Shown one piece after another: positions 6,619 through 51,883 of a DNA stretch of 64,000 nucleotides. The DNA is taken from NCBI RefSeq assembly GCF_001677475.2, contig NZ_CP015229.1; one strand, written 5' to 3'. This DNA is from Escherichia coli (GTDB taxonomy: Bacteria > Pseudomonadota > Gammaproteobacteria > Enterobacterales > Enterobacteriaceae). The notes under the pieces are model-generated. The model worked only from the letters and a program-made list of their open reading frames with translations. It was not told the DNA's origin and did no database searches. Positions within the stretch are counted from its first letter, which is position 1; every line of letters begins with the position of its first letter. The translations under genes and the position numbers were made by a program.

Positions 6619-6640
6619 TAGCGATTTTATCCTTGCCTGA

Positions 6641-7942: not shown

Positions 7943-8183
7943 AGCCTTTACTTATCGGTTATGTCACATAAGTGACGATGAACGGCGAACTTAATGCGAT
8001 CTTTTTTGTCAGTAGATAGTATTTTGCGCCAAATTGCCATGCAACGGGCAATTTGACGGGCGTAAAAGTTTGAAGCAGTGGCAAGACCTGACACAGAGGA
8101 TTCCGATTGATGTCGAATGCTTTGCGTAGCGACACTGATGCCACTACTATCGTTCCACTTTCCATGACAATAACGACAGCCTG

Positions 8184-8804
8184 ATGCCAAAATTACGCCT
8201 GATCGGATTAACTTTACTCGCACTTAGCGCCACTGCCGTCTCACACGCTGAAGAAACGCGCTATGTTTCTGATGAACTGAATACCTGGGTCCGTAGCGGT
8301 CCGGGAGATCATTATCGCCTCGTGGGCACGGTTAACGCCGGCGAGGAAGTGACCTTATTACAAACTGACGCCAACACCAATTATGCCCAGGTGAAAGACA
8401 GCTCTGGCCGTACCGCCTGGATCCCGTTGAAACAACTTAGCACAGAGCCAAGCCTGCGCTCCCGTGTGCCAGATCTGGAAAATCAGGTCAAAACCCTGAC
8501 CGATAAGCTCACCAATATCGATAACACCTGGAATCAGCGCACCGCAGAAATGCAGCAAAAAGTGGCGCAGAGCGACAGCGTGATCAACGGGTTAAAAGAA
8601 GAAAATCAGAAACTGAAAAACGAGCTGATTGTCGCGCAGAAAAAGGTCGATGCCGCCAGCGTACAGCTGGATGACAAACAGCGCACCATCATCATGCAGT
8701 GGTTTATGTATGGCGGCGGCGTGCTGGGGCTTGGCTTGCTGCTCGGTCTGGTACTGCCGCACCTGATCCCAAGCCGCAAACGCAAAGATCGCTGGATGAA
8801 CTAA
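8184..8804 (+). CDS. ygiM: SH3-domain protein with signal peptide and C-terminal TM anchor
   Basis: 206-aa ORF; N-terminal signal-like segment and hydrophobic C-terminus. Confidence 0.85.
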   Translation: MPKLRLIGLTLLALSATAVSHAEETRYVSDELNTWVRSGPGDHYRLVGTVNAGEEVTLLQTDANTNYAQVKDSSGRTAWIPLKQLSTEPSLRSRVPDLENQVKTLTDKLTNIDNTWNQRTAEMQQKVAQSDSVINGLKEENQKLKNELIVAQKKVDAASVQLDDKQRTIIMQWFMYGGGVLGLGLLLGLVLPHLIPSRKRKDRWMN

Positions 8805-8867
8805 ATCGCCTTCTTCGTTGCACTGTCTTATTATTAGGAATTGTGTATTTGACGAAGGGATGATGGC

Positions 8868-10106
8868 GTGAAGATTTATCTGGTCGGTGGTGCTGTTCGG
8901 GATGCATTGTTAGGGCTACCGGTCAAAGACAGAGATTGGGTGGTGGTCGGCAGTACGCCACAGGAGATGCTCGACGCGGGCTACCAGCAGGTAGGCCGCG
9001 ATTTTCCTGTTTTTCTGCATCCGCAAACGCATGAAGAGTATGCGCTGGCACGTACTGAACGGAAATCCGGTTCCGGTTACACCGGTTTTACCTGCTATGC
9101 CGCACCGGATGTCACGCTGGAAGATGATCTTAAGCGTCGCGATCTGACCATTAATGCGCTGGCCCAGGACGATAACGGCGAGATTATCGACCCGTACAAC
9201 GGTCTGGGCGATCTGCAAAATCGTCTGTTGCGCCATGTTTCCCCCGCTTTTGGCGAAGATCCGTTACGCGTATTGCGCGTGGCGCGTTTTGCTGCGCGTT
9301 ATGCCCACCTCGGTTTTCGTATTGCCGATGAAACTCTGGCACTGATGCGCGAGATGACCCATGCGGGTGAACTGGAACACCTGACGCCTGAACGGGTATG
9401 GAAAGAGACGGAAAGCGCCCTCACCACCCGCAATCCCCAAGTCTTCTTCCAGGTACTGCGCGATTGTGGTGCACTGCGCGTTTTATTCCCGGAAATTGAC
9501 GCCCTGTTTGGCGTTCCGGCCCCTGCCAAGTGGCATCCGGAAATCGACACGGGTATTCATACCTTAATGACGCTCTCAATGGCGGCGATGCTGAGTCCGC
9601 AGGTCGATGTCCGTTTCGCAACGCTATGCCACGATCTCGGTAAAGGACTGACGCCGCCAGAACTTTGGCCGCGTCATCATGGTCATGGCCCGGCGGGTGT
9701 TAAGTTAGTGGAACAACTCTGCCAGCGTCTGCGTGTGCCAAATGAAATTCGCGATTTAGCCAGACTGGTGGCTGAGTTTCACGATCTCATCCACACCTTC
9801 CCAATGCTGAACCCAAAAACCATCGTCAAATTATTTGATTCCATCGATGCCTGGCGTAAACCGCAGCGTGTCGAGCAACTGGCGCTGACCAGCGAGGCTG
9901 ACGTGCGCGGCAGAACCGGTTTTGAATCGGCGGACTACCCGCAAGGCCGCTGGTTGCGCGAAGCCTGGGAAGTGGCACAGTCAGTGCCGACAAAAGCCGT
10001 CGTTGAAGCGGGATTTAAAGGTGTGGAGATTCGCGAAGAGCTGACCCGACGGAGGATTGCGGCGGTAGCCAGCTGGAAGGAACAACGTTGCCCAAAGCCT
10101 GATTAA
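8868..10106 (+). CDS. cca: tRNA nucleotidyltransferase (CCA-adding enzyme) with HD domain
   Basis: 412-aa ORF from a GTG start, [12 protein letters not shown]...; HD motif (HDLGK) in C-terminal half. Confidence 0.9.
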
Positions 10107-10140
10107 CTTTTTAAATTCAGTATATTGCAGAAATCCTTTA

Positions 10141-10175
10141 GGTCGGATAAGACGCACAAGCGTCATATCCGACAC
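10141..10175. repeat. REP-type palindromic element
   Basis: ggtcggataagacgcacaagcgtcatatccgacac, an imperfect palindrome of the REP family, in the cca-uppP intergenic region. Confidence 0.6.
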
Positions 10176-10185
10176 TATCTCTCAA

Positions 10186-11007
10186 TCAAAAGAACACAAC
10201 GTACACCGCAGCTGCCACAATAAAGCGATAAATGGCGAACGGGATAAACGAAATGCGCTTAATCAGTTGCAGGAAGGTTTTAATCGCTATCAGTGCCACC
10301 ACAAAAGCGGTGATAAACCCAACGGCAAACATCGGGATATCGCCGGTTGTCAGGAAGCCCCAGCTTTTGTAGAGATCGAGCGCCGTTGCGCCCATCATCA
10401 TCGGCACCGCCAGCAGGAACGAGAACTCGGAAGCAGCGTAACGGCTCACGCCCATCAGCATCCCACCTGAAATGGTCGCCCCGGAACGGGAGAAACCCGG
10501 CCACAGCGCCAGACACTGGAAACAGCCAATCATAAACGCCTGACGATAGGTCATATCATCAAGACCCGGCGCACGCGGCTCTTTCGGCTTCAGGCATTCG
10601 GCGGCAATCAGCAACAAACCGCCAACGACCAGTGCATACATCACATTTATCGGGTTAAACAATGACTTAATCGTGTCGTGGAACAACAGCCCCAGTACCA
10701 CCGCCGGAATCATCCCCAGCAAAATGTGGATCAGCGTTAAACGACCTTTGCTTTCTCCTTCGTGCTGCAACGGGCGGCCAAAGTGGATGCCAATCAGGCC
10801 AAACAGACGCCGCCAGAACATCACTACTACCGCCAGAATTGATCCTAACTGGATCACAACTTCAAAGGTTTTCGCCGTGTCGCCCTCAAACCCCAACAAG
10901 TGACCGACAATAATCATATGGCCCGTGCTGGATACCGGCAGAAATTCTGTCAATCCTTCGACCACACCCAATATTGCCGCTATCAGCAGCGAGTGCATAT
11001 CGCTCAT
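10186..11007 (-). CDS. uppP: Undecaprenyl-diphosphate phosphatase
   Basis: Polytopic membrane protein; the recognised N-terminus [14 protein letters not shown] begins at the ATG whose complement is at 11005-11007 (ORF track adds one upstream TTG codon). Confidence 0.88.
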
Positions 11008-11097
11008 CAATAAACCCCTAAATTATTAAAATGTACCGCTTGTCCGAACTACTGCAGTATGACCAGGTTATAACCATTTGGTTTAACAGCTGTAAAA

Positions 11098-11466
11098 TTA
11101 ATTATTTTCTTTCAGATTATTGCCACGCTCAATGATTACGCCAACATTCGCCGCCCGCGCCACTGCGCCTGGCTTGCTGAGTTTGATACGCACCCACGGC
11201 GAGTTGAAGCGTGCTAACAGCAGCTCCGCCACCTCTTCAGCCACGCGCTCCACCAGCGCAAAACGCGCCCCCTCGACGTGGCTGACCACCGTTTCTGCAA
11301 TGTCAGCGTAACTGAGGCAATCCGCCACATCATCACTTTTCGCCGCTTTACGGTTATCCCATGCCATTTCGATATCGAACACTAACTTCTGTTCGATGGT
11401 CTGTTCCCAGTCGTAAACACCAATAGTGGTGATTACCGAAAGTTGCTCTATAAATACAATATCCAT
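11098..11466 (-). CDS. folB: Dihydroneopterin aldolase
   Basis: 122-aa protein MDIVFIEQLSVITTIGVYDWE...; conserved folB-uppP neighbourhood. Confidence 0.88.
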   Translation of the reverse strand: MDIVFIEQLSVITTIGVYDWEQTIEQKLVFDIEMAWDNRKAAKSDDVADCLSYADIAETVVSHVEGARFALVERVAEEVAELLLARFNSPWVRIKLSKPGAVARAANVGVIIERGNNLKENN

Positions 11467-11570
11467 CACGTCCTGCCTGCTTTTTGGCTAACCGGATACC
11501 ACTTCCGGCGAAATGTGCGTATTATCCACAGATTCATCGTTGAACACGAATTTTCAAAACGGAACAGCTT

Positions 11571-12188
11571 ATGAGTGCAATCGCGCCTGGAATGATCCTC
11601 ATCGCGTACCTCTGCGGCTCCATTTCCAGTGCCATTCTGGTTTGCCGCTTGTGTGGGCTGCCCGATCCGCGAACCAGCGGCTCCGGCAATCCAGGCGCAA
11701 CCAATGTGTTACGTATCGGTGGCAAGGGAGCAGCCGTAGCAGTACTGATTTTCGACGTTCTGAAAGGAATGTTGCCCGTCTGGGGCGCGTATGAATTAGG
11801 TGTCAGCCCCTTCTGGCTAGGCTTAATTGCCATCGCCGCCTGTCTTGGACACATCTGGCCCGTTTTCTTCGGATTTAAAGGAGGAAAAGGCGTTGCTACC
11901 GCTTTTGGTGCCATCGCACCAATTGGCTGGGATCTCACCGGAGTAATGGCGGGAACCTGGTTACTGACCGTGCTATTGAGCGGATACTCGTCGCTGGGAG
12001 CGATTGTCAGCGCACTGATTGCTCCGTTTTATGTCTGGTGGTTTAAGCCACAATTCACCTTCCCGGTTTCGATGCTCTCTTGCCTGATCCTGCTGCGTCA
12101 TCATGACAACATCCAGCGTCTGTGGCGTCGTCAGGAGACAAAAATCTGGACGAAATTCAAAAGAAAGCGCGAAAAGGATCCCGAGTGA
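11571..12188 (+). CDS. plsY: Glycerol-3-phosphate acyltransferase PlsY
   Basis: 205-aa polytopic membrane ORF, divergent from folB. Confidence 0.88.
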
Positions 12189-12200
12189 TTTCTGGTGGAT

Positions 12201-13133
12201 CTACATAACCTGATAGCCTTCGTCGGGCTTGCCCAGCCGTTGCTGGCACCATGCCGCCAGAAATTCCACGCAGACACGTAATTTCATGCTGCGATAGAGC
12301 GGCTCCCGGTAAACAGCCCAGATATTGGCGCTTTGTGCATACTCCGGCAATACTCGCACCAGTTTGCCACTCTCCAGAAACGGCAACACATCCCACTCGG
12401 AACGCAACATAATCCCTTTGCCCTCCAGCGCCCATTGCAACACTATCTCGCCGCTATTGGAGGAAAGATGCCCGCTTACCTTCACCGATTTTTTCTCCTG
12501 ACCGTTCCCCAACTCCCATATTCCGTGAGTCATATCGCGCTCTTTGGTCACCAGACAATCATGACGACTTAATTCCTGTAAGGATTGTGGCTGCGGATAT
12601 TTTTGCAGATACTCAGGTGCTGCGCATAATATTCTTTTATTTTTCGTTAACAGATGCGCAATATAATAATCAGGAATTTCGTCATTAATACGAATATCCA
12701 GATCAATATTATCCTGCACTAAATCAATTTGCCGATCGAACAATTCAAAATGCACCTGTAACTCAGGATAATTGCGCATCAGTTCGGTAATGGCTGGCGC
12801 AATATGGCTGCGCCCAAAACCAAAACTGCAACCAATACGAATCATCCCCTCCGGGCGCGTTTTGATTTGCGTGACGTCATCGACCAGTCGCTGATATTGG
12901 GTGAGGATTTCCAACGCATGTTCGTAACAACGTTGGCCACTTTCAGTCAGCGCCACGCCGCGAGCGGATCGGTTCAGCAGCGTTGTTGCCAGCGTATTTT
13001 CAAGGATTTGGATCCGCTTGGTGACAAATGCAGGCGTCTGCCCAAGCGTCGCCGCTGCGGCGCTAAAACTCTCGCTGTGGACGATTTCTACCAGTACCTG
13101 CAAATCTTTGGCTAAAGGCCAGCTATTCAGCAT
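12201..13133 (-). CDS. ttdR: LysR-family transcriptional activator of the tartrate operon
   Basis: 310-aa ORF with N-terminal HTH and LysR substrate-binding domain; divergent from ttdA. Confidence 0.88.
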
Positions 13134-13339
13134 CGTTAATTATCCGCAGTTGTGATAAGCGCAGTGTATTTCGCAAAACATTGCCATTCCCTGCTCTGGC
13201 GCAATATTCATTCTTATTTTCGCGTTGATTCACGAACTGTGAATTACATATTCACGGCGGCAAAAAATATAAAACCACATTTTTAGTGGTAGTTTGTGGC
13301 GGTGAATTTTTCCAGACAAATACATAAACTGGAGTTGCC

Positions 13340-14251
13340 ATGATGAGCGAAAGTAATAAGCAACAGGCAGTGAATAAGTTGACGGAGATTATCGCTAACT
13401 TTACCGCCATGATTTCTACCCGAATGCCCGATGACGTGGTGGACAAACTAAAACAGCTAAAGGATGCCGAAACGTCGTCGATGGGGAAAATCATCTACCA
13501 CACGATGTTCGACAACATGCAAAAAGCAATCGACCTGAATCGCCCGGCCTGCCAGGACACCGGCGAAATCATGTTTTTTGTTAAGGTCGGTTCCCGTTTC
13601 CCACTGCTTGGCGAGCTGCAAAGCATTCTTAAGCAAGCCGTGGAAGAGGCAACCGTCAAAGCGCCACTGCGTCACAATGCGGTAGAAATTTTTGACGAAG
13701 TGAACACCGGCAAAAATACCGGCAGCGGCGTACCGTGGGTCACCTGGGATATCGTCCCCGACGGTGACGATGCGGAAATCGAAGTTTACATGGCAGGCGG
13801 CGGCTGCACGTTGCCTGGTCGTTCGAAAGTGTTAATGCCGTCGGAAGGCTACGAAGGCGTAGTGAAATTCGTCTTCGAAAATATCTCCACCCTCGCCGTA
13901 AACGCCTGTCCACCGGTACTGGTAGGCGTGGGCATCGCCACCTCGGTGGAAACCGCCGCTGTGCTCTCACGTAAAGCCATTTTGCGCCCAATTGGCAGCC
14001 GCCACCCCAATCCGAAAGCGGCAGAGCTGGAGCTACGCCTGGAAGAAGGACTCAACCGTCTGGGGATTGGTCCACAAGGGCTGACTGGCAACAGTTCAGT
14101 GATGGGCGTACATATCGAATCTGCCGCCCGCCATCCGTCAACCATCGGCGTTGCTGTTTCTACAGGCTGCTGGGCGCATCGTCGCGGCACACTGCTGGTT
14201 CATGCCGATCTCACCTTTGAAAATCTGTCTCACACCCGGAGCGCGTTATGA
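13340..14251 (+). CDS. ttdA: L(+)-tartrate dehydratase alpha subunit
   Basis: 303-aa ORF, fumarate-hydratase class I N-terminal-like; overlaps ttdB start by 4 bp. Confidence 0.9.
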
Positions 14252-14853
14252 AAAAGATCCTGACAACCCCGATCAAAGCTGAAGATCTGCAAGATATTCG
14301 CGTCGGCGATGTGATCTACCTGACCGGTACGCTGGTGACCTGTCGTGACGTTTGTCACCGTCGCTTGATCGAACTGAAACGTCCGATCCCTTACGATCTC
14401 AACGGCAAAGCGATTTTCCACGCTGGCCCCATCGTGCGCAAAAACGGCGACAAATGGGAGATGGTATCCGTCGGTCCGACAACCAGTATGCGTATGGAAA
14501 GTTTTGAACGTGAATTTATCGAACAGACCGGCGTGAAACTGGTGGTCGGCAAAGGCGGAATGGGGCCGCTGACCGAAGAAGGCTGCCAGAATTTCAAGGC
14601 GCTGCATGTGATTTTCCCGGCAGGCTGCGCAGTACTGGCGGCAACCCAGGTGGAAGAGATTGAAGAAGTGCACTGGACAGAACTCGGGATGCCGGAGTCG
14701 CTGTGGGTCTGCCGGGTCAAAGAGTTCGGTCCGCTGATTGTTTCTATTGATACCCACGGCAACAACCTGATAGCCGAAAACAAAAAGCTGTTCGCCGAAC
14801 GCCGCGATCCCATCGTGGAAGAGATTTGCGAGCACGTCCACTACATCAAATAA
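14248..14853 (+). CDS. ttdB: L(+)-tartrate dehydratase beta subunit
   Basis: 201-aa ORF, ATGA overlap with ttdA stop. Confidence 0.9.
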
Positions 14854-14901
14854 CCCTCCCGGAGAGGCTCACCCCCTCTCCTTTTTCGCAGGCATAACAC
14901 G

Positions 14902-16365
14902 ATGAAACCTTCCACTGAATGGTGGCGATACCTTGCGCCGCTGGCGGTCATCGCCATTATTGCTCTAATTCCGGTTCCCGCAGGGCTGGAGAGTCATACC
15001 TGGCTCTACTTTGCCGTTTTTACTGGCGTGATCGTTGGGCTGATCCTCGAACCCGTGCCGGGTGCCGTGGTGGCGATGGTGGGTATCTCCATTATCGCCA
15101 TTCTCTCGCCGTGGCTGCTGTTTAGCCCCGATCAACTCGCCCAGCCAGGCTTTAAGTTCACCGCCAAATCCCTCTCCTGGGCAGTTTCTGGTTTTTCTAA
15201 TTCGGTTATCTGGCTGATTTTCGCCGCCTTTATGTTTGGCACAGGCTATGAAAAAACCGGGCTGGGGCGACGTATCGCGCTGATTCTGGTGAAAAAGATG
15301 GGGCATCGCACGCTGTTTCTCGGCTATGCGGTGATGTTCTCCGAGCTGATCCTGGCACCTGTAACACCGTCCAACTCGGCGCGTGGTGCGGGAATTATCT
15401 ATCCCATCATCCGTAACCTGCCACCGCTCTATCAATCACAACCAAATGACAGCAGTTCACGCAGCATTGGCTCGTACATCATGTGGATGGGGATTGTTGC
15501 CGACTGCGTGACCAGCGCCATTTTCCTGACGGCGATGGCACCAAACTTGCTGTTAATTGGACTGATGAAAAGTGCATCTCACGCCACGCTGAGTTGGGGC
15601 GACTGGTTCCTCGGGATGTTGCCGCTCAGTATTTTACTGGTGCTGCTGGTTCCCTGGCTGGCTTACGTGCTGTACCCGCCGGTACTGAAGTCTGGCGATC
15701 AGGTGCCGCGCTGGGCAGAGACGGAACTGCAGGCAATGGGCCCGCTCTGTTCGCGTGAAAAACGGATGCTGGGGCTGATGGTAGGCGCGCTGGTGCTGTG
15801 GATTTTCGGCGGTGATTATATCGATGCCGCGATGGTCGGTTACAGCGTGGTGGCGCTGATGCTGCTTCTGCGCATTATCAGTTGGGACGACATTGTCAGT
15901 AATAAAGCGGCGTGGAACGTTTTCTTCTGGCTGGCCTCGCTTATCACCCTCGCTACCGGACTCAACAACACCGGTTTTATTAGCTGGTTTGGCAAACTGT
16001 TAGCAGGCAGCTTAAGCGGTTATTCGCCGACGATGGTGATGGTGGCGTTGATTGTGGTCTTTTATCTGCTGCGCTACTTTTTTGCCAGCGCCACGGCGTA
16101 TACCTCCGCCCTCGCACCGATGATGATTGCCGCTGCGCTGGCGATGCCGGAAATCCCGCTGCCGGTGTTCTGCCTGATGGTTGGTGCGGCAATTGGTCTG
16201 GGGAGCATTCTTACACCATATGCCACCGGCCCCAGTCCGATTTACTACGGCAGTGATTATCTGCCAACGGCGGATTACTGGCGACTGGGGGCGATTTTTG
16301 GGCTGATATTCCTCGTATTGCTGGTGATTACCGGCTTACTGTGGATGCCCGTGGTGTTGCTTTAA
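14902..16365 (+). CDS. ttdT: Tartrate/succinate antiporter (DASS family)
   Basis: 487-aa polytopic membrane protein downstream of ttdAB. Confidence 0.88.
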   Translation: MKPSTEWWRYLAPLAVIAIIALIPVPAGLESHTWLYFAVFTGVIVGLILEPVPGAVVAMVGISIIAILSPWLLFSPDQLAQPGFKFTAKSLSWAVSGFSNSVIWLIFAAFMFGTGYEKTGLGRRIALILVKKMGHRTLFLGYAVMFSELILAPVTPSNSARGAGIIYPIIRNLPPLYQSQPNDSSSRSIGSYIMWMGIVADCVTSAIFLTAMAPNLLLIGLMKSASHATLSWGDWFLGMLPLSILLVLLVPWLAYVLYPPVLKSGDQVPRWAETELQAMGPLCSREKRMLGLMVGALVLWIFGGDYIDAAMVGYSVVALMLLLRIISWDDIVSNKAAWNVFFWLASLITLATGLNNTGFISWFGKLLAGSLSGYSPTMVMVALIVVFYLLRYFFASATAYTSALAPMMIAAALAMPEIPLPVFCLMVGAAIGLGSILTPYATGPSPIYYGSDYLPTADYWRLGAIFGLIFLVLLVITGLLWMPVVLL

Positions 16366-22475: not shown

Positions 22476-22551
22476 GGCCCCTTAGCTCAGTGGTTAGAGC
22501 AGGCGACTCATAATCGCTTGGTCGCTGGTTCAAGTCCAGCAGGGGCCACCA
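22476..22551 (+). tRNA. ileX: tRNA-Ile (anticodon CAU, lysidine-modified)
   Basis: 76-nt sequence ggccccttagctcagtggttagagcaggcgactCATaatcgc...gggccacca folds as a canonical cloverleaf with CAT anticodon and encoded CCA; its 3' 46 nt are repeated at 36093-36141. Confidence 0.92.
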
Positions 22552-22554
22552 GAT
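22506..22554 (+). repeat. attL core (3' part of ileX plus 3 nt)
   Basis: Exact 49-bp identity with 36093-36141, read directly from the sequence. Confidence 0.85.
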
Positions 22555-23356: not shown

Positions 23357-23641
23357 TTACCGCCGCAGTCGTTCCGGCTTCTTCCACTGGTAAGTATTTT
23401 TCGCGCTCTCCCTCCGTTGTTGAGAACGGCGACGGTATGCCAGCAACTCAAGGACTCTGATCCGTATGTCGCGCATATCCACGCCGTTAAGCTCGATACC
23501 GTCACGGCGCATCATCTCTGCCACCACACGCGCGTAATTTTCGGCTATCACGCTGTCCGGCTGCGTGGCCTCCTATTTGCTTGATGGTTGTTTGATTCCG
23601 GTAACGCGGCGGATTAATCCCAGCAATTCAGATTCTGTCAT
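23357..23641 (-). pseudogene. Amber-interrupted ORF downstream of terS (remnant of a packaging-module gene)
   Basis: MTESELLGLIRRVTGIKQPSSK, then in-frame TAG, then the 64-aa ORF 23357..23551 in the same frame; start overlaps terS stop. Confidence 0.35.
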
Positions 23642-23652
23642 AGTGCGCTACG

Positions 23653-23973
23653 TTACTTGTCTTTATTCGGCTGCAACTTATCCGGCACATTTCCGGTAGT
23701 TTCCATCAGGTAATCAGCCAGTATCTGTGGGAGGTTGTCGGCAACTCTGGCACTGGCATTACAGGCTTTAACCACTTCCCTTTTAAGCCCATCCAGCATA
23801 GCGGGGGTAATGTGTGGGAAGCTCCTTTGCATAGTAAGCGGGAGGCTGTCCATGATTGATGAAATCTGACTCGCCAGTTTTGAAAGCGCGTACATGCAAA
23901 ACTCTGTATCAATCACGTCACCGCGATCGCGCTCGTTTTTAAGTTCCTGCGCCTCCGCCTGTGCTGTCAGTAA
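23653..23973 (-). pseudogene. Small terminase subunit (lambda Nu1-like), C-terminal fragment separated from its N-terminus by the IS insertion
   Basis: Translation ...AQAEAQELKNERDRGDVIDTEFCMYALSKLASQISSIMDSLPLTMQRSFP... parallels lambda Nu1 C-terminal region (...AQADAQELKNARD...ETAFCTFVLSRIAGEIASILDGLPLSVQRRFP...) from memory. Confidence 0.7.
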
Positions 23974-24085
23974 TCTGATCCTGACTCGTAAGTATGAGAC
24001 GACAATAACTCAGTCCGCCTGGCGCCGATTATTCTGGCCGGTTTTGTAACCTGAGTGTCATTTACATGATCCAACAGGAAATGGC

Positions 24086-25465
24086 GTGACGCTCAATACT
24101 TCTCAGGTCAGTTACTATATGACTCAGCGTAAGAAAGGTATAACTCAGCATATCTCGGCCATGAAGGCTGGTATCTCAGTCCGTTCTGGTCGTCGGATCG
24201 AAAAAGGAGAGTGGGCAAAAAACAGTGTTCGGCACTGGCGCACACGCAAAGATCCTCTGGAAGCTGTGTGGGACAGCATGCTTGTTCCTCTGTTGAAAGA
24301 GAGGCCGGCTCTGACACCAACAACTCTACTGGAGATGCTACAGGATAAATATCCCGGCCAGTACCCCAACAGCCTTCGAAGAACAATGCAACGGCGGGTT
24401 CGCGAATGGAAACTACAGTATGGTACAGAGCAGGAGGTCATGTTCCGCCAGCAACATCAGCCCGGCCTGCGAGGCCTGTCGGACTTTACTGAACTGAAAG
24501 GTGTAGTTGTCACCATCGCCGGTAAGTTGTTGGCGCATAAGTTGTATCACTTCCGTCTGGAATGGAGCCACTGGAGCTGGATGCGGGTTGTTCTGGGTGG
24601 TGAGAGCTTCTCTGCTCTGGCTGAAGGCCTGCAGGAAGCCCTCGGACAACTGGGCGGAGTGCCGGTAGAACATAAAACGGACAGCCTGAGGGCAGCATGG
24701 AAACAACAGGGCGAAGATGGACGCCGCGAGCTGACTGAGCGTTATGCTACTCTCTGTCAGCACTACGGAATGCAGGGCGTACACAATAATGCCGGTCGGG
24801 GCCACGAAAATGGCTCGGTTGAAAGTGCCCACGGACATCTGAAAAGGCGTATCTGTCAGGCGCTGATACTGCGGGGCAGTAACGACTTCAGCACCATAGA
24901 AGAATATCAGGCCTTCATCACTCAGCAGGTTATGCGGCACAACCGTAACAATCAGGATCTGGTCAAGGAAGAACGTCTTCATCTGAAACCGCTGCCGCTT
25001 CGTCGCAGTGCTGACTATGATGAGCTGACTGTGAGGGTTAGTCGCAGCAGTACCATCAATGTGAAGCACGTCGTCTACAGCGTACCTTCCCGGCTTGTAG
25101 GTCAACTGTTACGGGTCAGGTTATGGGACGATCGTCTGAGCTGTTACGTTGGCAGCAGCGAGGTCATGAGCTGCCCTCGCGTCAGACCAGAAAAAGGGAA
25201 GACGCGGGCCCGTCGTATCGACTTCCGACATGTGATCGACAGTCTGGCAAAAAAGCCCGGTGCGTTCTGCCATGCAACGCTGAGAAATGACATCCTGCCG
25301 GACGATGAATGGCGGAGGCTGTGGCGTCGCTTATGTAATCATCTGGAGCCCGATATGGCAGGAAGGCTGATGGTACATGCCGGGAAACGTGGATCTGCAC
25401 CGGCTGATGCGCTTCCTGGGTATAAAAGAAAAGGCGTTGCCGGTAGTCAATGTGATACAGCATAA
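24086..25465 (+). CDS. istA: IS21-family transposase IstA
   Basis: 459-aa ORF (GTG start) with N-terminal HTH and DDE-type catalytic region; sits immediately upstream of an IstB-like gene. Confidence 0.8.
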   Translation: MTLNTSQVSYYMTQRKKGITQHISAMKAGISVRSGRRIEKGEWAKNSVRHWRTRKDPLEAVWDSMLVPLLKERPALTPTTLLEMLQDKYPGQYPNSLRRTMQRRVREWKLQYGTEQEVMFRQQHQPGLRGLSDFTELKGVVVTIAGKLLAHKLYHFRLEWSHWSWMRVVLGGESFSALAEGLQEALGQLGGVPVEHKTDSLRAAWKQQGEDGRRELTERYATLCQHYGMQGVHNNAGRGHENGSVESAHGHLKRRICQALILRGSNDFSTIEEYQAFITQQVMRHNRNNQDLVKEERLHLKPLPLRRSADYDELTVRVSRSSTINVKHVVYSVPSRLVGQLLRVRLWDDRLSCYVGSSEVMSCPRVRPEKGKTRARRIDFRHVIDSLAKKPGAFCHATLRNDILPDDEWRRLWRRLCNHLEPDMAGRLMVHAGKRGSAPADALPGYKRKGVAGSQCDTA

Positions 25466-25510
25466 CCTGAGCAGTTATGAGCAACTACTGCGTGGCAAGG
25501 GAGGTTCGCA

Positions 25511-26266
25511 GTGAGCAATATCCATCACCTTGAACATAGCCTGCGTAAACTACGCCTGACACGAGTTGGAGCTGAATGGCACGCTCTGGAAAAACGAGCG
25601 CTGGCAGAAGGCTGGACACCATCGCGCTATCTTCTGACGCTATGCAATGAAGAACTCCTGTGGCGCGAGAGTGAAAAACTGCGTCGTTATAAAAAGGAGG
25701 CCCGGTTGCCAGTTGCCAAAACGCTGAGCGAATACGACTTCAGTCAGGTGCCGGAACTGAATGGAGCTCAGTTCCGGCAACTCTGTGAAACGACAGACTG
25801 GGTTGATGCAGGAGAAAACGTTCTGCTGTTCGGAGCCAGCGGGTTGGGGAAAAGCCATCTGGCGGCAGCGATCGTGGATGGCGTAGTAGGTCAGGGCTAC
25901 CGGGCCCGGTTCTACAGCGCAGGAGAGCTGTTGCAGGAACTACGTAAAGCCAGAGCTCAGTTGAAACTGAATGAGCTGCTACTGAAACTGGATCGCTACC
26001 GGGTGATAGTGGTGGATGATCTTGGCTATGTCAAACGCGATAGTGCCGAAACGGGTGTGCTGTTCGAGTTAATAGCGCATCGCTATGAACGTGGGAGCCT
26101 GGTGATAACCAGTAACCATCCGTTCAGCATGTGGGGCAGCATCTTCGTGGATGAGACTATGGCGGTGGCTGCGGCAGACAGGCTGATCCATCACGGATAT
26201 ATGTTCGAACTGAAAGGGGAAAGCTACAGGAAAAAGACAGCGAAGGCAGTAACAAGCGCGACTTGA
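25511..26266 (+). CDS. istB: IS21-family helper ATPase IstB
   Basis: 251-aa ORF with Walker A (GASGLGKSHLA) and Walker B (VIVVDDLGY) motifs; RBS gggagg upstream of GTG start. Confidence 0.85.
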   Translation: MSNIHHLEHSLRKLRLTRVGAEWHALEKRALAEGWTPSRYLLTLCNEELLWRESEKLRRYKKEARLPVAKTLSEYDFSQVPELNGAQFRQLCETTDWVDAGENVLLFGASGLGKSHLAAAIVDGVVGQGYRARFYSAGELLQELRKARAQLKLNELLLKLDRYRVIVVDDLGYVKRDSAETGVLFELIAHRYERGSLVITSNHPFSMWGSIFVDETMAVAAADRLIHHGYMFELKGESYRKKTAKAVTSAT

Positions 26267-26325
26267 TGTCGCCCTGAAGGGTGCGGCCAGTATAGTTGGC
26301 GCGAGTCGGCAAAACTAGTTGACGT

Positions 26326-26526
26326 CTAATATCGTAAGAGTTCATCATCATCAATCTCGCCTTTGTCGTTTGTAAGCTGGCTAATTGCATTGTTAACCCT
26401 ATTGTCTATCACGCTGGCAACATCATAAAACGCCTCACGGCCTTTACGTTCAACGGGAGTCACTCCCCACTTGTCGAATGCTGTAGCACTTACCCGGCAG
26501 CTTTGCGCCATGGTTTTTTTGTTCAT
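26326..26526 (-). pseudogene. Small terminase subunit (lambda Nu1-like), N-terminal fragment truncated at the IS boundary
   Basis: MNKKTMAQSCRVSATAFDKWGVTPVERKGREAFYDVASVIDN... parallels lambda Nu1 N-terminus (MEVNKKQLADIFGASIRTIQNWQEQGMPV...); ORF ends exactly at the IS junction. Confidence 0.7.
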
Positions 26527-26639
26527 CAGGTGCGATTTCATCAATATCCCAACTTGGTCAAGGTTTCAGGTTGGTGTGTTGGTGTTATCTTTCCCTTTTT
26601 ATTCATGGAGATAGAGCAAACAACAAAACCACCACCACC

Positions 26640-26745
26640 CCCCTGAAAAAGCTCATAAATAGCGAAAAACCGCGAGGTCGCCGCCCCGTAACGGGTCCAT
26701 ATGCCGGAAAGGACCCGTAAAAAAAGCCGGATTTCTCCGGCCTTG
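26640..26745 (-). other. Lambda-type cos site (cosN with flanking terminase-binding region)
   Basis: Minus strand reads ACGGGTCCTTTCCGG...CGTTACG-GGGCGGCGACCT-CGCGGTTTTTCGCTATTTATGA, nearly identical to the phage lambda cohesive-end region as I recall it (GGGCGGCGACCTCGCGGGTTTTCGCTATTTATGAAAA); lies ~150 nt upstream of the Nu1-like start. Confidence 0.75.
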
Positions 26746-26747
26746 TC

Positions 26748-27161
26748 TCAGATGGTTTTCAGTATGCGATCGATGTCGCCATCATCGCCCGGGTTTCTGC
26801 CAGCGTATGCCATACCAGCTGATACGGCTTTCGGGCTGTGCATGTCCATAAAGTTTTCAAAGGCTGCGGTAAGCTCTGGTGCAACCTTCTGGCGTTCCTG
26901 CTCTATGGTCATGCTAAGGATGCTTTTAGCCGTACCAACATCGATACAAGGCACGTTTGCCATTGCACGTAACAGCGGCTGATAGTCGCCAGATTCATCA
27001 AGCGCCATAATCGCATCAGAGCGCGGCTTGTCCTTCTCTTCCAGGCTGTTAAGTTGATATACGGCCTCGTAGGTTGATAAACCTCTGTCAGCCATTGCCC
27101 GCGCTTCGGCCTTAAATTTACTCGCCAGCGGTAGCGTCATGATGCTTTCATTCGTTGCCAT
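26748..27161 (-). CDS. Hypothetical protein (137 aa) between decoration-like gene and cos
   Basis: ORF with no motif I recognise; co-oriented with capsid genes. Confidence 0.55.
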   Translation of the reverse strand: MATNESIMTLPLASKFKAEARAMADRGLSTYEAVYQLNSLEEKDKPRSDAIMALDESGDYQPLLRAMANVPCIDVGTAKSILSMTIEQERQKVAPELTAAFENFMDMHSPKAVSAGMAYAGRNPGDDGDIDRILKTI

Positions 27162-27173
27162 CGTTCCCTCTGC

Positions 27174-27509
27174 TTATCGGGCCAGTGGCTGAACGGATAC
27201 GCCAGAACCCGCAAAGGCGGCGCATTTTTTCGCATCGGTGTCGACGCTCTCAGGCCAGTTAACGGCGGCGATATTAAATATCCCCGTCTTATAGCACTGT
27301 GCTGATTTCTGCGTCGACGTGTCAACGGGGTACGAGGTCAGATAAACAGCCTTGCCAGATTCCTGACCATCCCACGGCTTAAACTCGCCATTTTCCGCCA
27401 GCATCAGCGGGGTAAATTCCTGAATAACTCCAGCATCAGCGGCAAAATGTACCAGCGTCGTGGATACCTGCTGACTGCCTGCAAATAACTCAATGTATGG
27501 AGTGTTCAT
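27174..27509 (-). CDS. Head decoration protein (lambda gpD-like)
   Basis: 111-aa ORF, size and position next to an E-like capsid gene match lambda D (110 aa); assignment by context and size, weak sequence recall. Confidence 0.6.
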   Translation of the reverse strand: MNTPYIELFAGSQQVSTTLVHFAADAGVIQEFTPLMLAENGEFKPWDGQESGKAVYLTSYPVDTSTQKSAQCYKTGIFNIAAVNWPESVDTDAKKCAAFAGSGVSVQPLAR

Positions 27510-27520
27510 AGAATCCCCCG

Positions 27521-28576
27521 TTAAGCAATTTTGACGGTAACAAATTTGCGAATATCTGCCGGTACCGGCTGCGGTGCGCTGTGCGTCTGCACGTACTCAA
27601 TCGCCGGATCGCCATCCTCAATCCAGTTTTTCGGGTAGTACATGTTTTGCGTTGCGCCAGTTCTTACCGCTTCCGGATCCATAATCGCACCATAGGCCAC
27701 CAGCCCTTTATTGTTAGTGTTGCCCAGGACAAGCAAATCAGGCTCAAGGAAATATTTTTCGGTGCCATCGCTGTCGGTGTATTTGCCGGAATAGACGATA
27801 AGGGCCAGATCACCCAGATAGCCTTTAAAGCTCACCACTTCGCCCAGGTTTTTACAGGCCAGCTCTGCGGCGGATTCTGAACCACGGGAAAGATCGTACA
27901 GTTCACGGAATTTTTTAAAGCTGCGTAACGTGCGCCATACCTCAGCGCCCATAATCATGACGTTGGCGGGGCAACCAGCCTGATCGGTGTATAGTTCGAT
28001 GTCATAGATTGGATCGTGTGTTTCCTTATCTGCCTCAGACCACTTTTTGCCCGATCCCTGCGTAATGATGTTTTTAGTCGGGATTTTCCAGTCGATTTCG
28101 TATCTATTTATTCCTTCGCCCTCAATGATGTTTTTTCCGGTCGTGACCGCATTCACCGCCAGCCATTCTATGCGAGCTTTAATAGCGTTTACCTGGCGGC
28201 GCATGTTGCCAGTAATCAGGCGCATACGGCGATAAGTTGGATCGTTAAGCTGTGCCGGATCTTCTCCAGCCATGCGCATGATGGTTTTTGATGGATCGAT
28301 TTCGTGTTTTGGTTTCATATAGCCAGGGCGGATAGTGCTTGTTTCGTACCCTTTATCGCGCTGAACCTGACTCCCCACCATAGGCGAACAAAAAGCCGAC
28401 ATGGTGACTTCTTCAATATCCAGGGTATCTAACATGATGTCCTGCGTGTTGAAGGTTGCCACGTTCGGGAAAAACAGCGACGTAAACAGCGGACTGAATT
28501 TAAATTCCGAAATATCCCCACGATTCAGGTACGCGAAAAGCTGGTTAGTGTTAAGTGCCGTTGCTTTGCCTGTCAT
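27521..28576 (-). CDS. Major capsid protein (lambda gpE-like)
   Basis: 351-aa ORF aligning along its length with lambda E from memory: FKFSPLFTSLFF / FKFDPLFLRLFF, PGYMKPKHEIDP / PGYVKPKHEVNP, YSGKY...LVLGNTNN...YPKNW / YSGQY...MVLGNTQA...YPKNW. Confidence 0.8.
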   Translation of the reverse strand: MTGKATALNTNQLFAYLNRGDISEFKFSPLFTSLFFPNVATFNTQDIMLDTLDIEEVTMSAFCSPMVGSQVQRDKGYETSTIRPGYMKPKHEIDPSKTIMRMAGEDPAQLNDPTYRRMRLITGNMRRQVNAIKARIEWLAVNAVTTGKNIIEGEGINRYEIDWKIPTKNIITQGSGKKWSEADKETHDPIYDIELYTDQAGCPANVMIMGAEVWRTLRSFKKFRELYDLSRGSESAAELACKNLGEVVSFKGYLGDLALIVYSGKYTDSDGTEKYFLEPDLLVLGNTNNKGLVAYGAIMDPEAVRTGATQNMYYPKNWIEDGDPAIEYVQTHSAPQPVPADIRKFVTVKIA

Positions 28577-28815
28577 TATTCACCCCCATGAGTCTGATTC
28601 ATGCCCAGCGCCGCGCGTAAATAGGCGCGTACCTGCCAGCCTGTTGACGGCTCAACCATCGCCAGCGGCTCAAGTCCTGCCGCAATGCCTGCTTTTACGT
28701 TCTGCTGGTGGCGTTCCTTGAGCGCCTCCACGATGTCTGGGCTTATGTAAACTGTCACCCCGCCTTTTTTCTCTTCTGCCATAGTCGGAAATTCCTCTTT
28801 GACGTTAAAAATCAC
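28576..28815 (-). CDS. Hypothetical small protein translationally coupled to the capsid gene
   Basis: 79-aa ORF (possibly starting at internal MAEEKK); stop shares one base with the capsid ATG. Confidence 0.5.
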   Translation of the reverse strand: MIFNVKEEFPTMAEEKKGGVTVYISPDIVEALKERHQQNVKAGIAAGLEPLAMVEPSTGWQVRAYLRAALGMNQTHGGE

Positions 28816-28951: not shown

Positions 28952-29028
28952 GCCCGATAAGACCCTCTGACCTTATCGGGCTTTTTTTGGGGCATAAAAA
29001 AGCCGGACTTCTCCGGCTTCTGTTACTC
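28952..29028. terminator. Pair of intrinsic terminator hairpins between the SSB gene and the capsid operon
   Basis: gcccgataag...cttatcgggc followed by T-run; and gccggacttctccggc flanked by A-run / T-run (functional on minus strand). Confidence 0.55.
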
Positions 29029-33709: not shown

Positions 33710-33786
33710 AATAGCCAGTTGCTGTGGGGAGGTTACCAGTTATTTAGCCTTAATAGCCAGCTATTAAGATACACTAGCCAGCTATT
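33710..33786. promoter_or_regulatory. Three TAGCCAG-containing operator-like repeats upstream of alpA
   Basis: aatagccagttgc (33710), aatagccagctatt (33752), ctagccagctattg (33773); plus inverted repeat atcaccgtg...cacggtgat at 33651-33682. Confidence 0.45.
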
Positions 33787-34507
33787 GGGGGTGAACAAGT
33801 TCAAACGAAGAATATTTATCAGGTCTTGGTGGTTGTGCTCCTGATTCTTTAATCCATTTATCCAGAGTGTTTTTACTTACTTTCCCATGATAGTAAACAG
33901 AAAGCTCGTTCAATAAACCTGTTTTACTGGCTTTAGGGTACTTTTCCCATGTTAGTTTAATTACGTGCATAACTTCATTGTAATAATGATTTCTTGGTTT
34001 GCGCGCTTTTTCTTTCTGTGATAAGGATAAAGCATCTTTTATTTTTTTATCTTTTTCATGGTTCGATATAATTTCTTCAAAAAAGTCATTAAGCAATAAC
34101 TCAACACCAACCCTAGTAAGTTTGTCTGCGTGATTACGCATTCCGACATGGTACAATGCAACTGCTGAATTTAAAGTATCGACAACCTGACAAGATAGTT
34201 TACTATCAAATATTAAAAAACCACATGAATCCATTCTTATAGCTAATTCAATAGGATATTGCTCGATTTCTCTTAATTCTAAACCATAACACAAAAGAAA
34301 TTCTCTTGTTGGATACTTTGATTTATAAAAATAATCTCTTATATCATCAATCAAGCGTTTTATAGCCTCTATGGTGGAGTTTTTCGGGGATAAAGATACA
34401 GGAACGTTTAAAACTGAAGAGTCTCGCCCACCAGTAATTAAATCATTCATAACCGAATAAATAATATATTGTTTGACCGATATATTGTTATCACCCATAT
34501 ATGTCAT
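33782..34507 (-). CDS. AT-rich orphan protein (241 aa) in the integrase-proximal cargo position
   Basis: Long ORF with visibly lower GC than the rest of the island; overlaps the int stop; no motif I can recognise. Confidence 0.6.
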   Translation of the reverse strand: MTYMGDNNISVKQYIIYSVMNDLITGGRDSSVLNVPVSLSPKNSTIEAIKRLIDDIRDYFYKSKYPTREFLLCYGLELREIEQYPIELAIRMDSCGFLIFDSKLSCQVVDTLNSAVALYHVGMRNHADKLTRVGVELLLNDFFEEIISNHEKDKKIKDALSLSQKEKARKPRNHYYNEVMHVIKLTWEKYPKASKTGLLNELSVYYHGKVSKNTLDKWIKESGAQPPRPDKYSSFELVHPQ

Positions 34508-35912
34508 TCTTTTCTTGTACTATAGCAAATAGTAAACGACGTTTTTCATCATCACTCATGCCCTCCAGTGCGGAAAGTAATTGCGCATCGATAGATTTTT
34601 TACTCTCCACCAGCCCGGCATGTTCCAGAATTGCCCGTTCTATCCGTGATGCTGGCTCCAGCAGTTCATCAGCACCGAAATGTAAATACCCCTGCGTTAC
34701 GTCGGCACTTCGCATAGTGCGGTGATTCATCAGGCGCTTGAGGATGTAATTACCCACGCCCACCAGCTCAGCAACCGTTCCGAACGTCCGGCGTGCGTCG
34801 TGCCACTTAAACGGGACAGGGAAGAGCATTTCATCGTTCGCCTCAGGAATGGTAGCCGCGCTTATCCGGTCTATGATGTGCCGTGTCTCCTGAATCACTC
34901 CCTTCACGCCAGGAAACACCAGCACATCATCAGCAGCTTTGTTTTTTAGCCTGCGAAGAAACATTTTCCGCAACGTATCAGTGATCGGCAGTTCAAGCGG
35001 ATCCCCGTTTTTCGTGGTGTCTATCCAGAAAAAGCGACCGCCCATATTCACGCGATCCCACGTAAGGCCAAAAACTTCTGATTTCCTCAGTCCGGTAAAC
35101 AGTGCCATTTCCACGGCATCACATACCGTAACAGCTATATCATCCCTTTCCTGTTCGCCCTGGTCGCGCACAGCAGCTACAGCAGCAAACCAGCGGGGAA
35201 AATCATGCAGGCGGATACGTTCCGTTTTTCTTACCGTTCCGTGCCACTGGCGCTTGGTGCTCAGTACCAGAGTCGGCGGATCCGGTAAAAGAGTATTACC
35301 CGCATCATCACGGTAATGATCATGCGCAAACCGACACACAGCACGTAGCGCACGCGCCCATAAATCGGCCTGTGCCTTGCTTCCTGTACCAACCCCAGCC
35401 CGTAACGTGGTTTTATCAGCACCGAACCATACAGCCCCATCAGTGATGGCCTTATGCCGTTGTTCCACCCGTTCGCGGGAAATACTGGCGAGGGTATGGG
35501 CCATCCAGTCACCGGAATAATTCTGTAATATGCTGCGGTACTGTTTTTCTGTGGAGGGTTTCAGGCGGTGGCCACGATTTTTTACGTAGGCGTCAATCGC
35601 CTCACTCAGCGTTATCATGGCCTTGTTGTTAGTGCGCTTTGCTATGTTCGGATTTATCCCCGTTGTGGCGACTTCGCCAAGGAGTTCCATAGCTTTAGCC
35701 CTGGCATTATCCACGCTCAGATCAGGAAAACGCCCCAGCGTTGCACGAATAAATTTTCCGTTACGCTTACGGGAAATGCAGAAACTTTTCACACCAGACG
35801 AACCTACACGGACACGCAGCCCGTTAACCTCCGTATCACCATATTCGACCTGTCCATGTTCCGGCGTTGGCAGTTCTGCAATTTTTACTTTAGAGAATCT
35901 GAATAATTTCAC
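34491..35912 (-). CDS. int: Tyrosine site-specific integrase
   Basis: 473-aa ORF from a GTG start; catalytic signature region (LRKSE..., WHDARRTFGT, ...QGYLHF) with an N-terminal arm-binding-like domain. Confidence 0.85.
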   Translation of the reverse strand: MKLFRFSKVKIAELPTPEHGQVEYGDTEVNGLRVRVGSSGVKSFCISRKRNGKFIRATLGRFPDLSVDNARAKAMELLGEVATTGINPNIAKRTNNKAMITLSEAIDAYVKNRGHRLKPSTEKQYRSILQNYSGDWMAHTLASISRERVEQRHKAITDGAVWFGADKTTLRAGVGTGSKAQADLWARALRAVCRFAHDHYRDDAGNTLLPDPPTLVLSTKRQWHGTVRKTERIRLHDFPRWFAAVAAVRDQGEQERDDIAVTVCDAVEMALFTGLRKSEVFGLTWDRVNMGGRFFWIDTTKNGDPLELPITDTLRKMFLRRLKNKAADDVLVFPGVKGVIQETRHIIDRISAATIPEANDEMLFPVPFKWHDARRTFGTVAELVGVGNYILKRLMNHRTMRSADVTQGYLHFGADELLEPASRIERAILEHAGLVESKKSIDAQLLSALEGMSDDEKRRLLFAIVQEKNDIYG

Positions 35913-36092: not shown

Positions 36093-36141
36093 ACTCATAA
36101 TCGCTTGGTCGCTGGTTCAAGTCCAGCAGGGGCCACCAGAT
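36093..36141 (+). repeat. attR core (displaced partial copy of tRNA-Ile 3' end)
   Basis: 49-bp exact copy of 22506-22554; upstream sequence is not tRNA-like, so this is not a functional tRNA. Confidence 0.85.

Positions 36142-41753: not shown

Positions 41754-51883
<10,130 letters not shown>

Follow-up and report, generated by a model that had tools for sequence, protein, structure and literature searches.

We describe a lambda-like cos site on the minus strand of a 64,000-nt stretch of an Escherichia coli chromosome (NZ_CP015229.1, assembly GCF_001677475.2; hereafter the window), a stretch that carries dnaG, rpoD and mug. With high confidence we assign it to a phage-inducible chromosomal island (PICI) belonging to the EcCICFT073/EcCIIHE3034 family. 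An earlier sequence-only reading had predicted packaging by a lambdoid helper terminase, possibly with specificity altered by the island's own small terminase subunit (TerS), the homolog of lambda Nu1. The general form of this idea, a cos for a lambdoid helper terminase with a diverged cosB paired with the island's own TerS, is partly supported by published work on a sister island and by the sequence comparisons presented here; packaging is something that we infer, because two TerS-type islands tested previously failed to transfer. The idea does not extend unchanged to the window copy, where an insertion sequence (IS) truncates TerS, so that the proposed altered specificity cannot operate without help in trans.

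A lambda-like cos core in a chromosomal island

Base pairs are numbered from the first G of the cohesive end (bp 1), such that bp n lies at window position 26687 - n, and the lambda reference is the circularized junction of the NC_001416 ends, which was aligned to the window. The string quoted in the sequence-only reading, given there as a match to the lambda cohesive end with both immediate flanks, is present letter for letter on the minus strand of 26640-26745. The lambda alignment that it had called for bears this out, with 18/18 positions identical on the left and 38/39 on the right of a diverged 12-nt spacer. The left block, TTTACGGGTCCTTTCCGG, holds the cosQ heptamer GGGTCCT, which lies about 17 bp upstream of cosN with the same sequence and at the same distance as in lambda (48473-48479). 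The next 12 nt are CATATGGACCCG in the window and TGATCCGACAGG in lambda, equal in length and diverged in sequence. The right block is a 39-mer consisting of TTACG (5/5), the cohesive end GGGCGGCGACCT (12/12) and the flank CGCGG(T/G)TTTTCGCTATTTATGA (21/22). The cohesive-end 12-mer alone was dropped as a significant match, since 35/100 shuffles give a match at ≤1 mismatch, and significance is therefore carried only by the extended 39-mer, which at ≤3 mismatches occurs once in the window and in 0/100 dinucleotide-preserving shuffles. This likeness to lambda suggests that terminase would cleave at the window cosN.

The sequence-only reading was also right that the cosB-equivalent region diverges before the Nu1-like gene. 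Similarity to lambda fades from about bp 35, and the lambda R3-I1-R2-R1 elements are absent from the window, where other R-like blocks stand at equivalent positions. We counted invariant positions over 37 distinct, indel-free island cos segments. The cosQ heptamer is fully invariant (7/7) and its spacer to cosN not at all (0/12); the cohesive end is conserved at bp 1-6 (5/6) and variable at bp 7-12 (1/6), a variation that mirrors the tolerance seen among lambda-like phages; and the right flank is again conserved (bp 13-36, 21/24). Farther right, conservation is concentrated in TGGTGGTGGTTTTGTT at bp 50-65 (14/16) and ACACCAACCTGAA at bp 110-122 (13/13), with little at bp 97-109 (3/13) or bp 123-131 (2/9). 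The R1 position (bp 132-141) has 5/10 invariant positions and was treated as weak. Judged by position and conservation, the R3- and R2-like blocks are candidate TerS-binding sites. An analogue of the N15 rR2 element, in the form of a 13-nt inverted repeat (I1) between bp 56-68 and the TerS NKK codons, was rejected as low-complexity coding sequence.

The cos site lies in an island integrated at the tRNA-Ile2 gene adjoining mug, a site also given for PICIs in PMC10111431. Its flanking 49-nt repeats have a start-to-start spacing of 13,587 bp, the size of the predicted excised circle, or 11.2 kb without the IS. On the minus strand the genes run from integrase through a 241-aa open reading frame (ORF), an AlpA/excisionase-type helix-turn-helix (HTH) protein, an Icd-like protein, DUF4222, a 610-aa primase, a single-stranded DNA-binding protein and a 79-aa ORF to capsid, decoration, a 137-aa ORF, the cos region, the Nu1-like gene and a 93-aa ORF; the AlpA assignment is by a phrog_66 match only (E 5e-9). 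The island thus has what characterizes Gram-negative PICIs, namely an integrase, an AlpA-type regulator, primase and replication genes, unidirectional transcription, a size in the 10-15 kb range and att repeats. The ORF list and the annotations of intact relatives contain no TerL (large terminase), portal, tail or lysis gene for the island. The TerL, portal, protease and head-tail connectors of capsid-forming PICIs are lacking, with only capsid, decoration and 137-aa ORF present, and the cos is lambda-type and not the P2-type cos of P4-like satellites (no specific search was made for Sid, Psu or delta). The 64-kb window contains no phage-size structural genes that would point to a helper within it, and PADLOC gave no defence genes among six island proteins tested.

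The 11-kb layout recurs at several chromosomal sites. DNA searches found the cos-plus-TerS module in 762 of 5,426 complete E. coli genomes. Many genomes hold several such islands, the median being two matching places per genome. The RppA/B module, which has been studied, was found in 97/5,426 genomes, an underestimate because RppC-like genes are too diverged for a DNA search; by these counts the TerS type is about eightfold commoner. In some TerS-type islands a single ClpP-like protease/capsid fusion gene replaces the capsid/decoration/137-aa module (L008, NZ_CP041304, 585-2498); islands of this kind keep the same cosB and TerS, and their cohesive end is GGGCGGCAGACG.

A satellite TerS and its putative cognate cosB

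The Nu1-like gene noted in the sequence-only reading starts 146 bp from the nick (ATG at 26541), and its interruption by an IS after codon 70 had been missed. Intact homologs of 180 aa are present in L003, L004 and L092. The L003 protein is 36% identical to lambda Nu1 over its full length (E 7e-34), matches phrog_57 over residues 1-174 (E 8e-52) and has a Pfam Phage_Nu1 match, and thus has the N-terminal winged HTH, Phage_Nu1 domain and length of about 180 aa of the Nu1 family. It has no similarity to RppA beyond the HTH (E 1.3), and the 139-154 aa Rpp that marks an Rpp-type module is not found here. We considered an Rpp identity for the cos-adjoining gene and rejected it, because comparison of both cos-flanking proteins with solved structures gave no relevant match, the RppC chain included.

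A scan of IMG/VR with a TerS profile returned 80 loci. In 59 of them the TerS has 81-100% identity to that of the island; every one of these carries SCRVSATAFDKW across the predicted recognition helix, and none (0/59) has a TerL-size ORF downstream, the largest downstream ORF being ≤130 aa. At the 20 loci with an N15-like helix (GISVQAFDKW or GISPQAF[DE]KW), an ORF of at least 400 aa follows in every case and runs off the locus, and we take these loci to be phages for that reason. The usual placement of a Nu1-family gene directly upstream of its partner TerL thus holds for 20/20 phage-type and 0/59 island-type loci, and the island TerS is a satellite-only lineage in the IMG/VR sample.

The closest phage TerS is N15 gp1, which is 45% identical overall and identical at 29/49 positions in the DNA-binding domain. 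The island cosB region is position-for-position collinear, including the inverted R2, with the cos region of L010, a lambdoid prophage of strain ST866 that has N15-type R sequences, a Monarch-like layout and an N15-like TerS. Phages with N15-type TerS carry TGGTTGTTGTTT or AGGTTGTTGTTT at R3, whereas the islands carry TGGTGGTGGTTT; the recognition helix reads SVQAFDKW in the former and SATAFDKW in the latter (V to A, Q to T), and the R3 T-to-G changes track the helix changes. The window accordingly differs from an N15/Monarch-type cosB, in which R3 is GGTTGTTGT(T) at bp 48-60 and is combined with a SVQAFDKW TerS: here R3 is GGTGGTGGT and the helix SATAFDKW. This divergence resembles the specificity divergence between lambda and phage 21. 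A natural chimera was found in L071 (IMGVR_UViG_3300011484_000005), a 9.8-kb, island-size contig whose TerS joins a DNA-binding domain resembling the island's (SCKVGVTAFDKW) to a C-terminal half that is almost the same as that of lambda Nu1, and whose cos has island-like R3/R2 variants.

In intact TerS-type islands and in EcCICFT073, another cos (cos2), in inverted orientation, separates the packaging gene from the 93-aa ORF (L003, ~15060-15200; L092, ~9950-10100; L005, 3230-3340). In the TerS type, cos2 has a phage-like tripartite cosB (CATGTCGGTACTTCTCG, inverted GAAACGACACGG, CATGTCGTTTCTC) in a region 71% identical to that of a 21-like prophage. TerS-type islands may therefore hold one cos of their own specificity and one of helper specificity.

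Clues to the helper come from strain WP8-S17-ESBL-12 (L093, NZ_AP022222 3530000-3566000), in which capsid gene E of a complete lambdoid prophage harbours a TerS-type island (~5240-16275), a helper-embedded configuration that has been described for PICIs (PMC10111431). The prophage encodes a TerS that matches Nu1 at 179/181 residues, and it has the cos of lambda, complete with R3, R2 and R1. The embedded island retains cosQ and the flanks on both sides of cosN, but its cosB and TerS are of the island type and its cohesive end is a different one, GGGCGTCAGGCG. It also carries a TIR-domain gene and an Abi gene.

The window copy is damaged at its packaging end

Comparison with a 99.5%-identical island in TUM1886 revealed the insertion in the window copy, an IS21-family element within the TerS gene. 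None of the 5,426 complete E. coli genomes searched contains the IS-TerS junction, and the insertion is thus private and probably recent. Going by the structural model, what remains at the 5' end is apparently the DNA-binding domain, stripped of the parts for oligomerisation and TerL binding. An in-frame stop interrupts the 93-aa ORF, and the window has a single cosN, the second cos of its relatives being absent. The cos DNA, comprising cosQ, cosN and both R-like blocks, is unaltered relative to intact relatives. The window island has thus kept a good cutting site and has probably lost self-directed packaging; at best it could be packaged inefficiently, or with TerS from a sister island. With its targeting gene lost, it is unpromising as an active mobile element.

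Models for packaging

The explanation that we consider likely overall is as follows. A lambda-like helper phage would induce the island, which would excise and replicate to concatemers. Helper TerL would nick cosN 12 bp apart, and cosQ would permit termination at the downstream cos; the helper enzyme should be able to cut and terminate here because cosQ, cosN and their spacing stay lambda-like. The choice of DNA would be set to the right of cosN by the R3-position block, the inverted R2-position block and the island's own TerS, whose DNA-binding domain would bind the R-like blocks and whose C-terminal half would bring helper TerL. Such a mechanism would be a cos-type counterpart of the small-terminase strategy of Staphylococcus aureus pathogenicity islands (SaPIs), in place of the Rpp of EcCICFT073. 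Each lambda-sized head would hold 3-4 copies of the 11-13.6 kb unit. Lambda heads take about 38-51 kb. Three units of 13.6 kb amount to 40.8 kb and four units of 11.2 kb (without the IS) to 45.0 kb, so multimers of three to four units would fit, in agreement with the multimer packaging of EcCICFT073.

We prefer direct TerL recruitment as the mode of action of the island TerS, and would give it an even chance. Only tentatively do we extend this to a class: TerS-type PICIs may represent a second, uncharacterised hijack of lambda-like cos packaging, in which a satellite TerS and an N15/Monarch-derived cosB bypass helper TerS and recruit TerL directly. It is similarly tentative that the specificity switch would consist of the two R3 T-to-G changes together with the V-to-A and Q-to-T changes in the helix.

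Several observations weigh against this explanation. EcCIIHE3034 and EcCI18098 showed no transfer after mitomycin C induction of resident prophages in 2018 (PMC6092414), and in the literature since then we found no characterisation of TerS-type E. coli PICIs and no report showing their packaging. In its C-terminal half, the island TerS reaches no more than 38-41% identity to any phage TerS in the sample, and direct binding to helper TerL is for this reason unproven. The AlphaFold model of TerS, of moderate confidence (predicted local distance difference test score, 74), places a winged helix within residues 5-58, and a fold search with it returned nothing at E ≤ 0.001 and did not retrieve Nu1, the best weak hits being MerR-type winged helices; a match to Nu1 chains in a profile search was given no weight, as the profile itself contains Nu1. 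The link between R3 and the helix comes from roughly two island and four phage lineages, that is, from few independent events. A role for R2 as an island-specific element was rejected, since the L075 phage group carries the island-type R2 core, and only R3 therefore tracks the TerS helix. Finally, a by-eye search between the R-like blocks found no convincing consensus for an integration host factor (IHF) site.

The alternative that survives best, although we think it rather doubtful, is that the window island is a decaying relic that is no longer mobilised, its cos being conserved only since the damage is recent. The packaging end has three lesions, namely the IS in TerS, the nonsense codon in the 93-aa ORF and the missing cos2; no other genome searched shares the IS junction; and the 70-aa fragment, a DNA-binding domain without its TerL-recruiting half, could occupy R3 unproductively. 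Counting against decay are the unaltered cos DNA and an integrase, primase and att repeats that look intact. In addition, lack of Rpp lowers the transfer of EcCICFT073 cos plasmids but does not abolish it, and the presence of several such islands per genome means that TerS could be supplied in trans.

A route like that of Rpp is unlikely, if only somewhat less credible than decay. The island TerS would co-assemble with helper TerS, and the mixed complex would be diverted to the island cosB, making helper terS a requirement. Rpp works by co-assembly in the sister island EcCICFT073, and the divergence of the island TerS C-terminal half from every phage TerS would fit such a role. Island and phage TerS show high conservation of the central helix RLLTAQAEAQELKNER (R72, R74, L75, A78, A80, A82, E84 and N87 are invariant), and its Nu1 counterpart, RLTRAQADAQE (~87-97), is part of the fragment, TerS 1-98, that was crystallised together with RppC; the contact with Rpp has been assigned to the extended alpha3 helix of TerS. 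Murialdo and Feiss, however, explain the need of Rpp for TerS by its want of a TerL-binding end, whereas the island TerS retains its C-terminal region in full, with the conserved P156, L159 and Y162 near the end. The L071 chimera, with its lambda-type C-terminal half, likewise suggests selection on direct TerL fit.

We regard it as improbable that helper terminase alone uses the window cos and that the island TerS mainly interferes with helper packaging. Interference is the other half of Rpp's role, and the phage-type cosB of cos2 in relatives could be used by helper TerS unaided. The window, however, has no cos2, and at cos1 the conservation of R3 and R2 and their co-occurrence with one type of TerS helix argue for a cognate pair. 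A degraded lambdoid prophage cos, or a chance match, is already refuted for practical purposes: the cos core occurs in 4,658/5,426 genomes and cosN-type sequences are widespread in E. coli prophages, but the att repeats 13.6 kb apart, the PICI gene set without TerL, portal, tail or lysis genes, the recurrence of the layout in 762 genomes and an expectation of zero in shuffles all speak against it.

Further features of the island

The features of the window island are collected in Table 1.

Table 1. Features of the island and its cos region in the window, ordered by position
Feature	Position	Strand	Remarks
tRNA gene, anticodon CAT	22476-22551		ARAGORN and Rfam; annotated tRNA-Ile in TUM1886
att repeat, tRNA 3' part	22506..22554	+	one island end; 49-nt perfect direct repeat
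93-aa ORF (phrog_1561)	23357..23641	-	in-frame TAG at codon 23 (23573-23575); sense codon in relatives
TerS 3' fragment	23653..23992	-	residues ~69-180, including presumed TerL-binding end
Target duplication TCGTAAG	23986-23992 and 26332-26338		7 bp
IS21-family (ISEc10-like) element	23993..26331	+	2339 bp; terminal inverted repeats; inserted in TerS gene
IstA	24086-25465		within IS21-family element
IstB	25511-26266		within IS21-family element
TerS 5' fragment	26326..26541	-	70 TerS codons, one foreign codon and stop
Candidate R2 core ACACCAACCTGAA	26565..26577	-	bp 110-122; inverted relative to R3; within inverted repeat I3
A-rich spacer between two R-like blocks	26591..26616	-	bp 71-96; 17/26 invariant; possible bend or IHF region
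Candidate R3 (TerS-binding) core TGGTGGTGGTTTTGTT	26622..26637	-	bp 50-65; lambda R3 at bp 50-65, N15 R3 at ~bp 48-59
cosN right flank CGCGGTTTTTCGCTATTTATGA	26653..26674	-	21/22 identical to lambda bp 13-34
cosN cohesive end GGGCGGCGACCT	26675..26686	-	identical to lambda
Predicted nicks	26687/26686 (minus strand), 26675/26674 (plus strand)		positions inferred from lambda
cosQ-cosN spacer CATATGGACCCG	26692..26703	-	lambda length, other sequence
cosQ heptamer GGGTCCT	26710..26716	-	bp -30 to -24, lambda distance from nick
Hairpin and T-run GGCCGGAGAAATCCGGC TTTTTTTT	26719..26745	-	inverted repeat I6; after 137-aa ORF, abuts cosQ; terminator-like
137-aa ORF	26748-27161	-	
Decoration-protein homolog	27174-27509	-	PHROG
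Capsid-protein homolog	27521-28576	-	PHROG
Morphogenesis module, including 79-aa ORF	26748..28815	-	PHROG matches; 92% identical to EcCICFT073 c1499/c1500 region
241-aa ORF	33782-34507	-	adjoins integrase, accessory-gene position; no PHROG or PADLOC match
Tyrosine integrase	34491-35912	-	
att repeat, integrase end	36093..36141	+	49-nt perfect copy of 22506..22554

The hairpin that abuts cosQ was missed by a simple terminator scan; a terminator-like hit inside cosN was discarded, as it consists only of the symmetric, GC-rich core and the T-run that comes after it in the flank. Near-identical 22-nt terminator-like hairpins (AAAAAAGCCGGAYTTCTCCGGC) at 26720-26741 and 28996-29017 bracket the capsid module. 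The latter coincides with the onset of EcCICFT073 homology at 29018, and both may be module-junction sequences. In many islands the cosQ-cosN spacer contains GGACCCGT, the inverted complement of ACGGGTCC (cosQ and flank), forming an 8-bp inverted repeat (window 26691-26718). This repeat was not seen in lambda, N15 or the prophages examined and is not in every island, there being three spacer types.

Comparison with known systems

PICIs spread virulence and anti-phage defence genes among enterobacteria, and packaging decides which phages carry them. The packaging mechanism is solved only for Rpp-type islands, and the TerS type is commoner. The comparative data provide two candidate TerS-binding blocks with exact coordinates, a natural chimeric TerS, a satellite-in-helper pair with a near-lambda helper, and a predicted two-base R3 specificity switch relative to N15/Monarch-type phages (GGTGGTGG vs GGTTGTTG). 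The advance is a modest one: such cos sites were known in this island family before, and what is usefully added is a testable picture of the TerS-type packaging module.

The experimental model among the relatives is EcCICFT073 (Fillol-Salom 2018/2019; PMC6092414, PMC6739421, PMC9026076), whose cloned cos sites allow plasmid transfer by lambda and phi80, even without Rpp at reduced levels. Its RppA binds phage TerS in a complex that prefers the cosB of island cos1, and its multimers are packaged into phage-sized heads. A lambda-like cosQ and cosN with a non-phage cosB has thus already been published for this family, and Murialdo & Feiss (2022) stressed the conserved cosQ-cosN spacing and proposed an R3-PICI at bp 55-63. 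Over 29018-26645, a stretch that takes in the capsid genes, cosQ and cosN and ends at about bp 42, EcCICFT073 and the window are 92% identical. EcCICFT073 has the same cosQ, spacer and cohesive end, the cos lies between the 137-aa ORF and the packaging gene, a non-phage cosB lies to the right of cosN, and homology resumes at the same 93-aa ORF downstream. From about bp 42 it differs, with its own cos1 cosB and rppA (144 aa, without a TerL-binding end) where the TerS type has the 180-aa Nu1 homolog, and it has a second cos, which the window lacks. Its proposed R3-PICI is ACCACCACC (bp 55-63), whereas the window has GGTGGTGGT on the other strand at ~bp 51-59. The two sequences (L005 ~2612-2620; window 26629-26637) are reverse complements at nearly the same distance from cosN, which could be a low-complexity coincidence or shared ancestry with an inversion.

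A TerS-type island has been catalogued before: the 2018 ISME J paper (PMC6092414) states that the islands of IHE3034 and 18098 "encode TerS" and gives EcCIIHE3034 as NC_017628:920272-930825 in Table S1. EcCIIHE3034 agrees with the window island in gene order, cos and cosB-equivalent, and its TerS is 96% identical; the window island is a member of this catalogued type on those grounds. EcCIIHE3034 differs in its site (cspD-clpS vs tRNA-Ile2), its intact TerS and 93-aa ORF and its inverted cos2.

Among phages, lambda shares cosQ, spacing, the 12-nt cohesive end and the right flank, together with an R-like block at bp 50-65, an inverted one ~60 bp on and a TerS gene directly after them. Its own R3/R2/R1 and I1 are absent from the window, its TerS is 36% identical, and no TerL follows the island TerS. 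N15/Monarch (PMC4669245) is closer to the right of cosN, with the closest phage TerS, a T/G-rich R3 at the same position and a collinear cosB including the inverted R2; it differs in R3 (TGGTTGTTGTTT vs TGGTGGTGGTTT, two T-to-G changes) and in the helix (SVQAF vs SATAF). The C-terminal half of N15 gp1 is lambda-like, whereas that of the island TerS is not. SaPI TerS-S (PMC6092414) offers an analogy of mechanism only, a satellite TerS homolog that redirects helper TerL; it acts in headful pac packaging in Gram-positive hosts and belongs to an unrelated TerS family, in contrast to the cos site and Nu1-family protein of the E. coli islands.

Three things are new with respect to these systems. By sequence, a predicted full-length Nu1-family TerS stands where EcCICFT073 has Rpp. 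Across 59 loci, this TerS is never found beside a large-terminase gene. Finally, the putative cosB-equivalent aligns collinearly with the N15/Monarch-type cosB and contains two conserved blocks, in one of which, R3, the changes appear to track those in the TerS helix.

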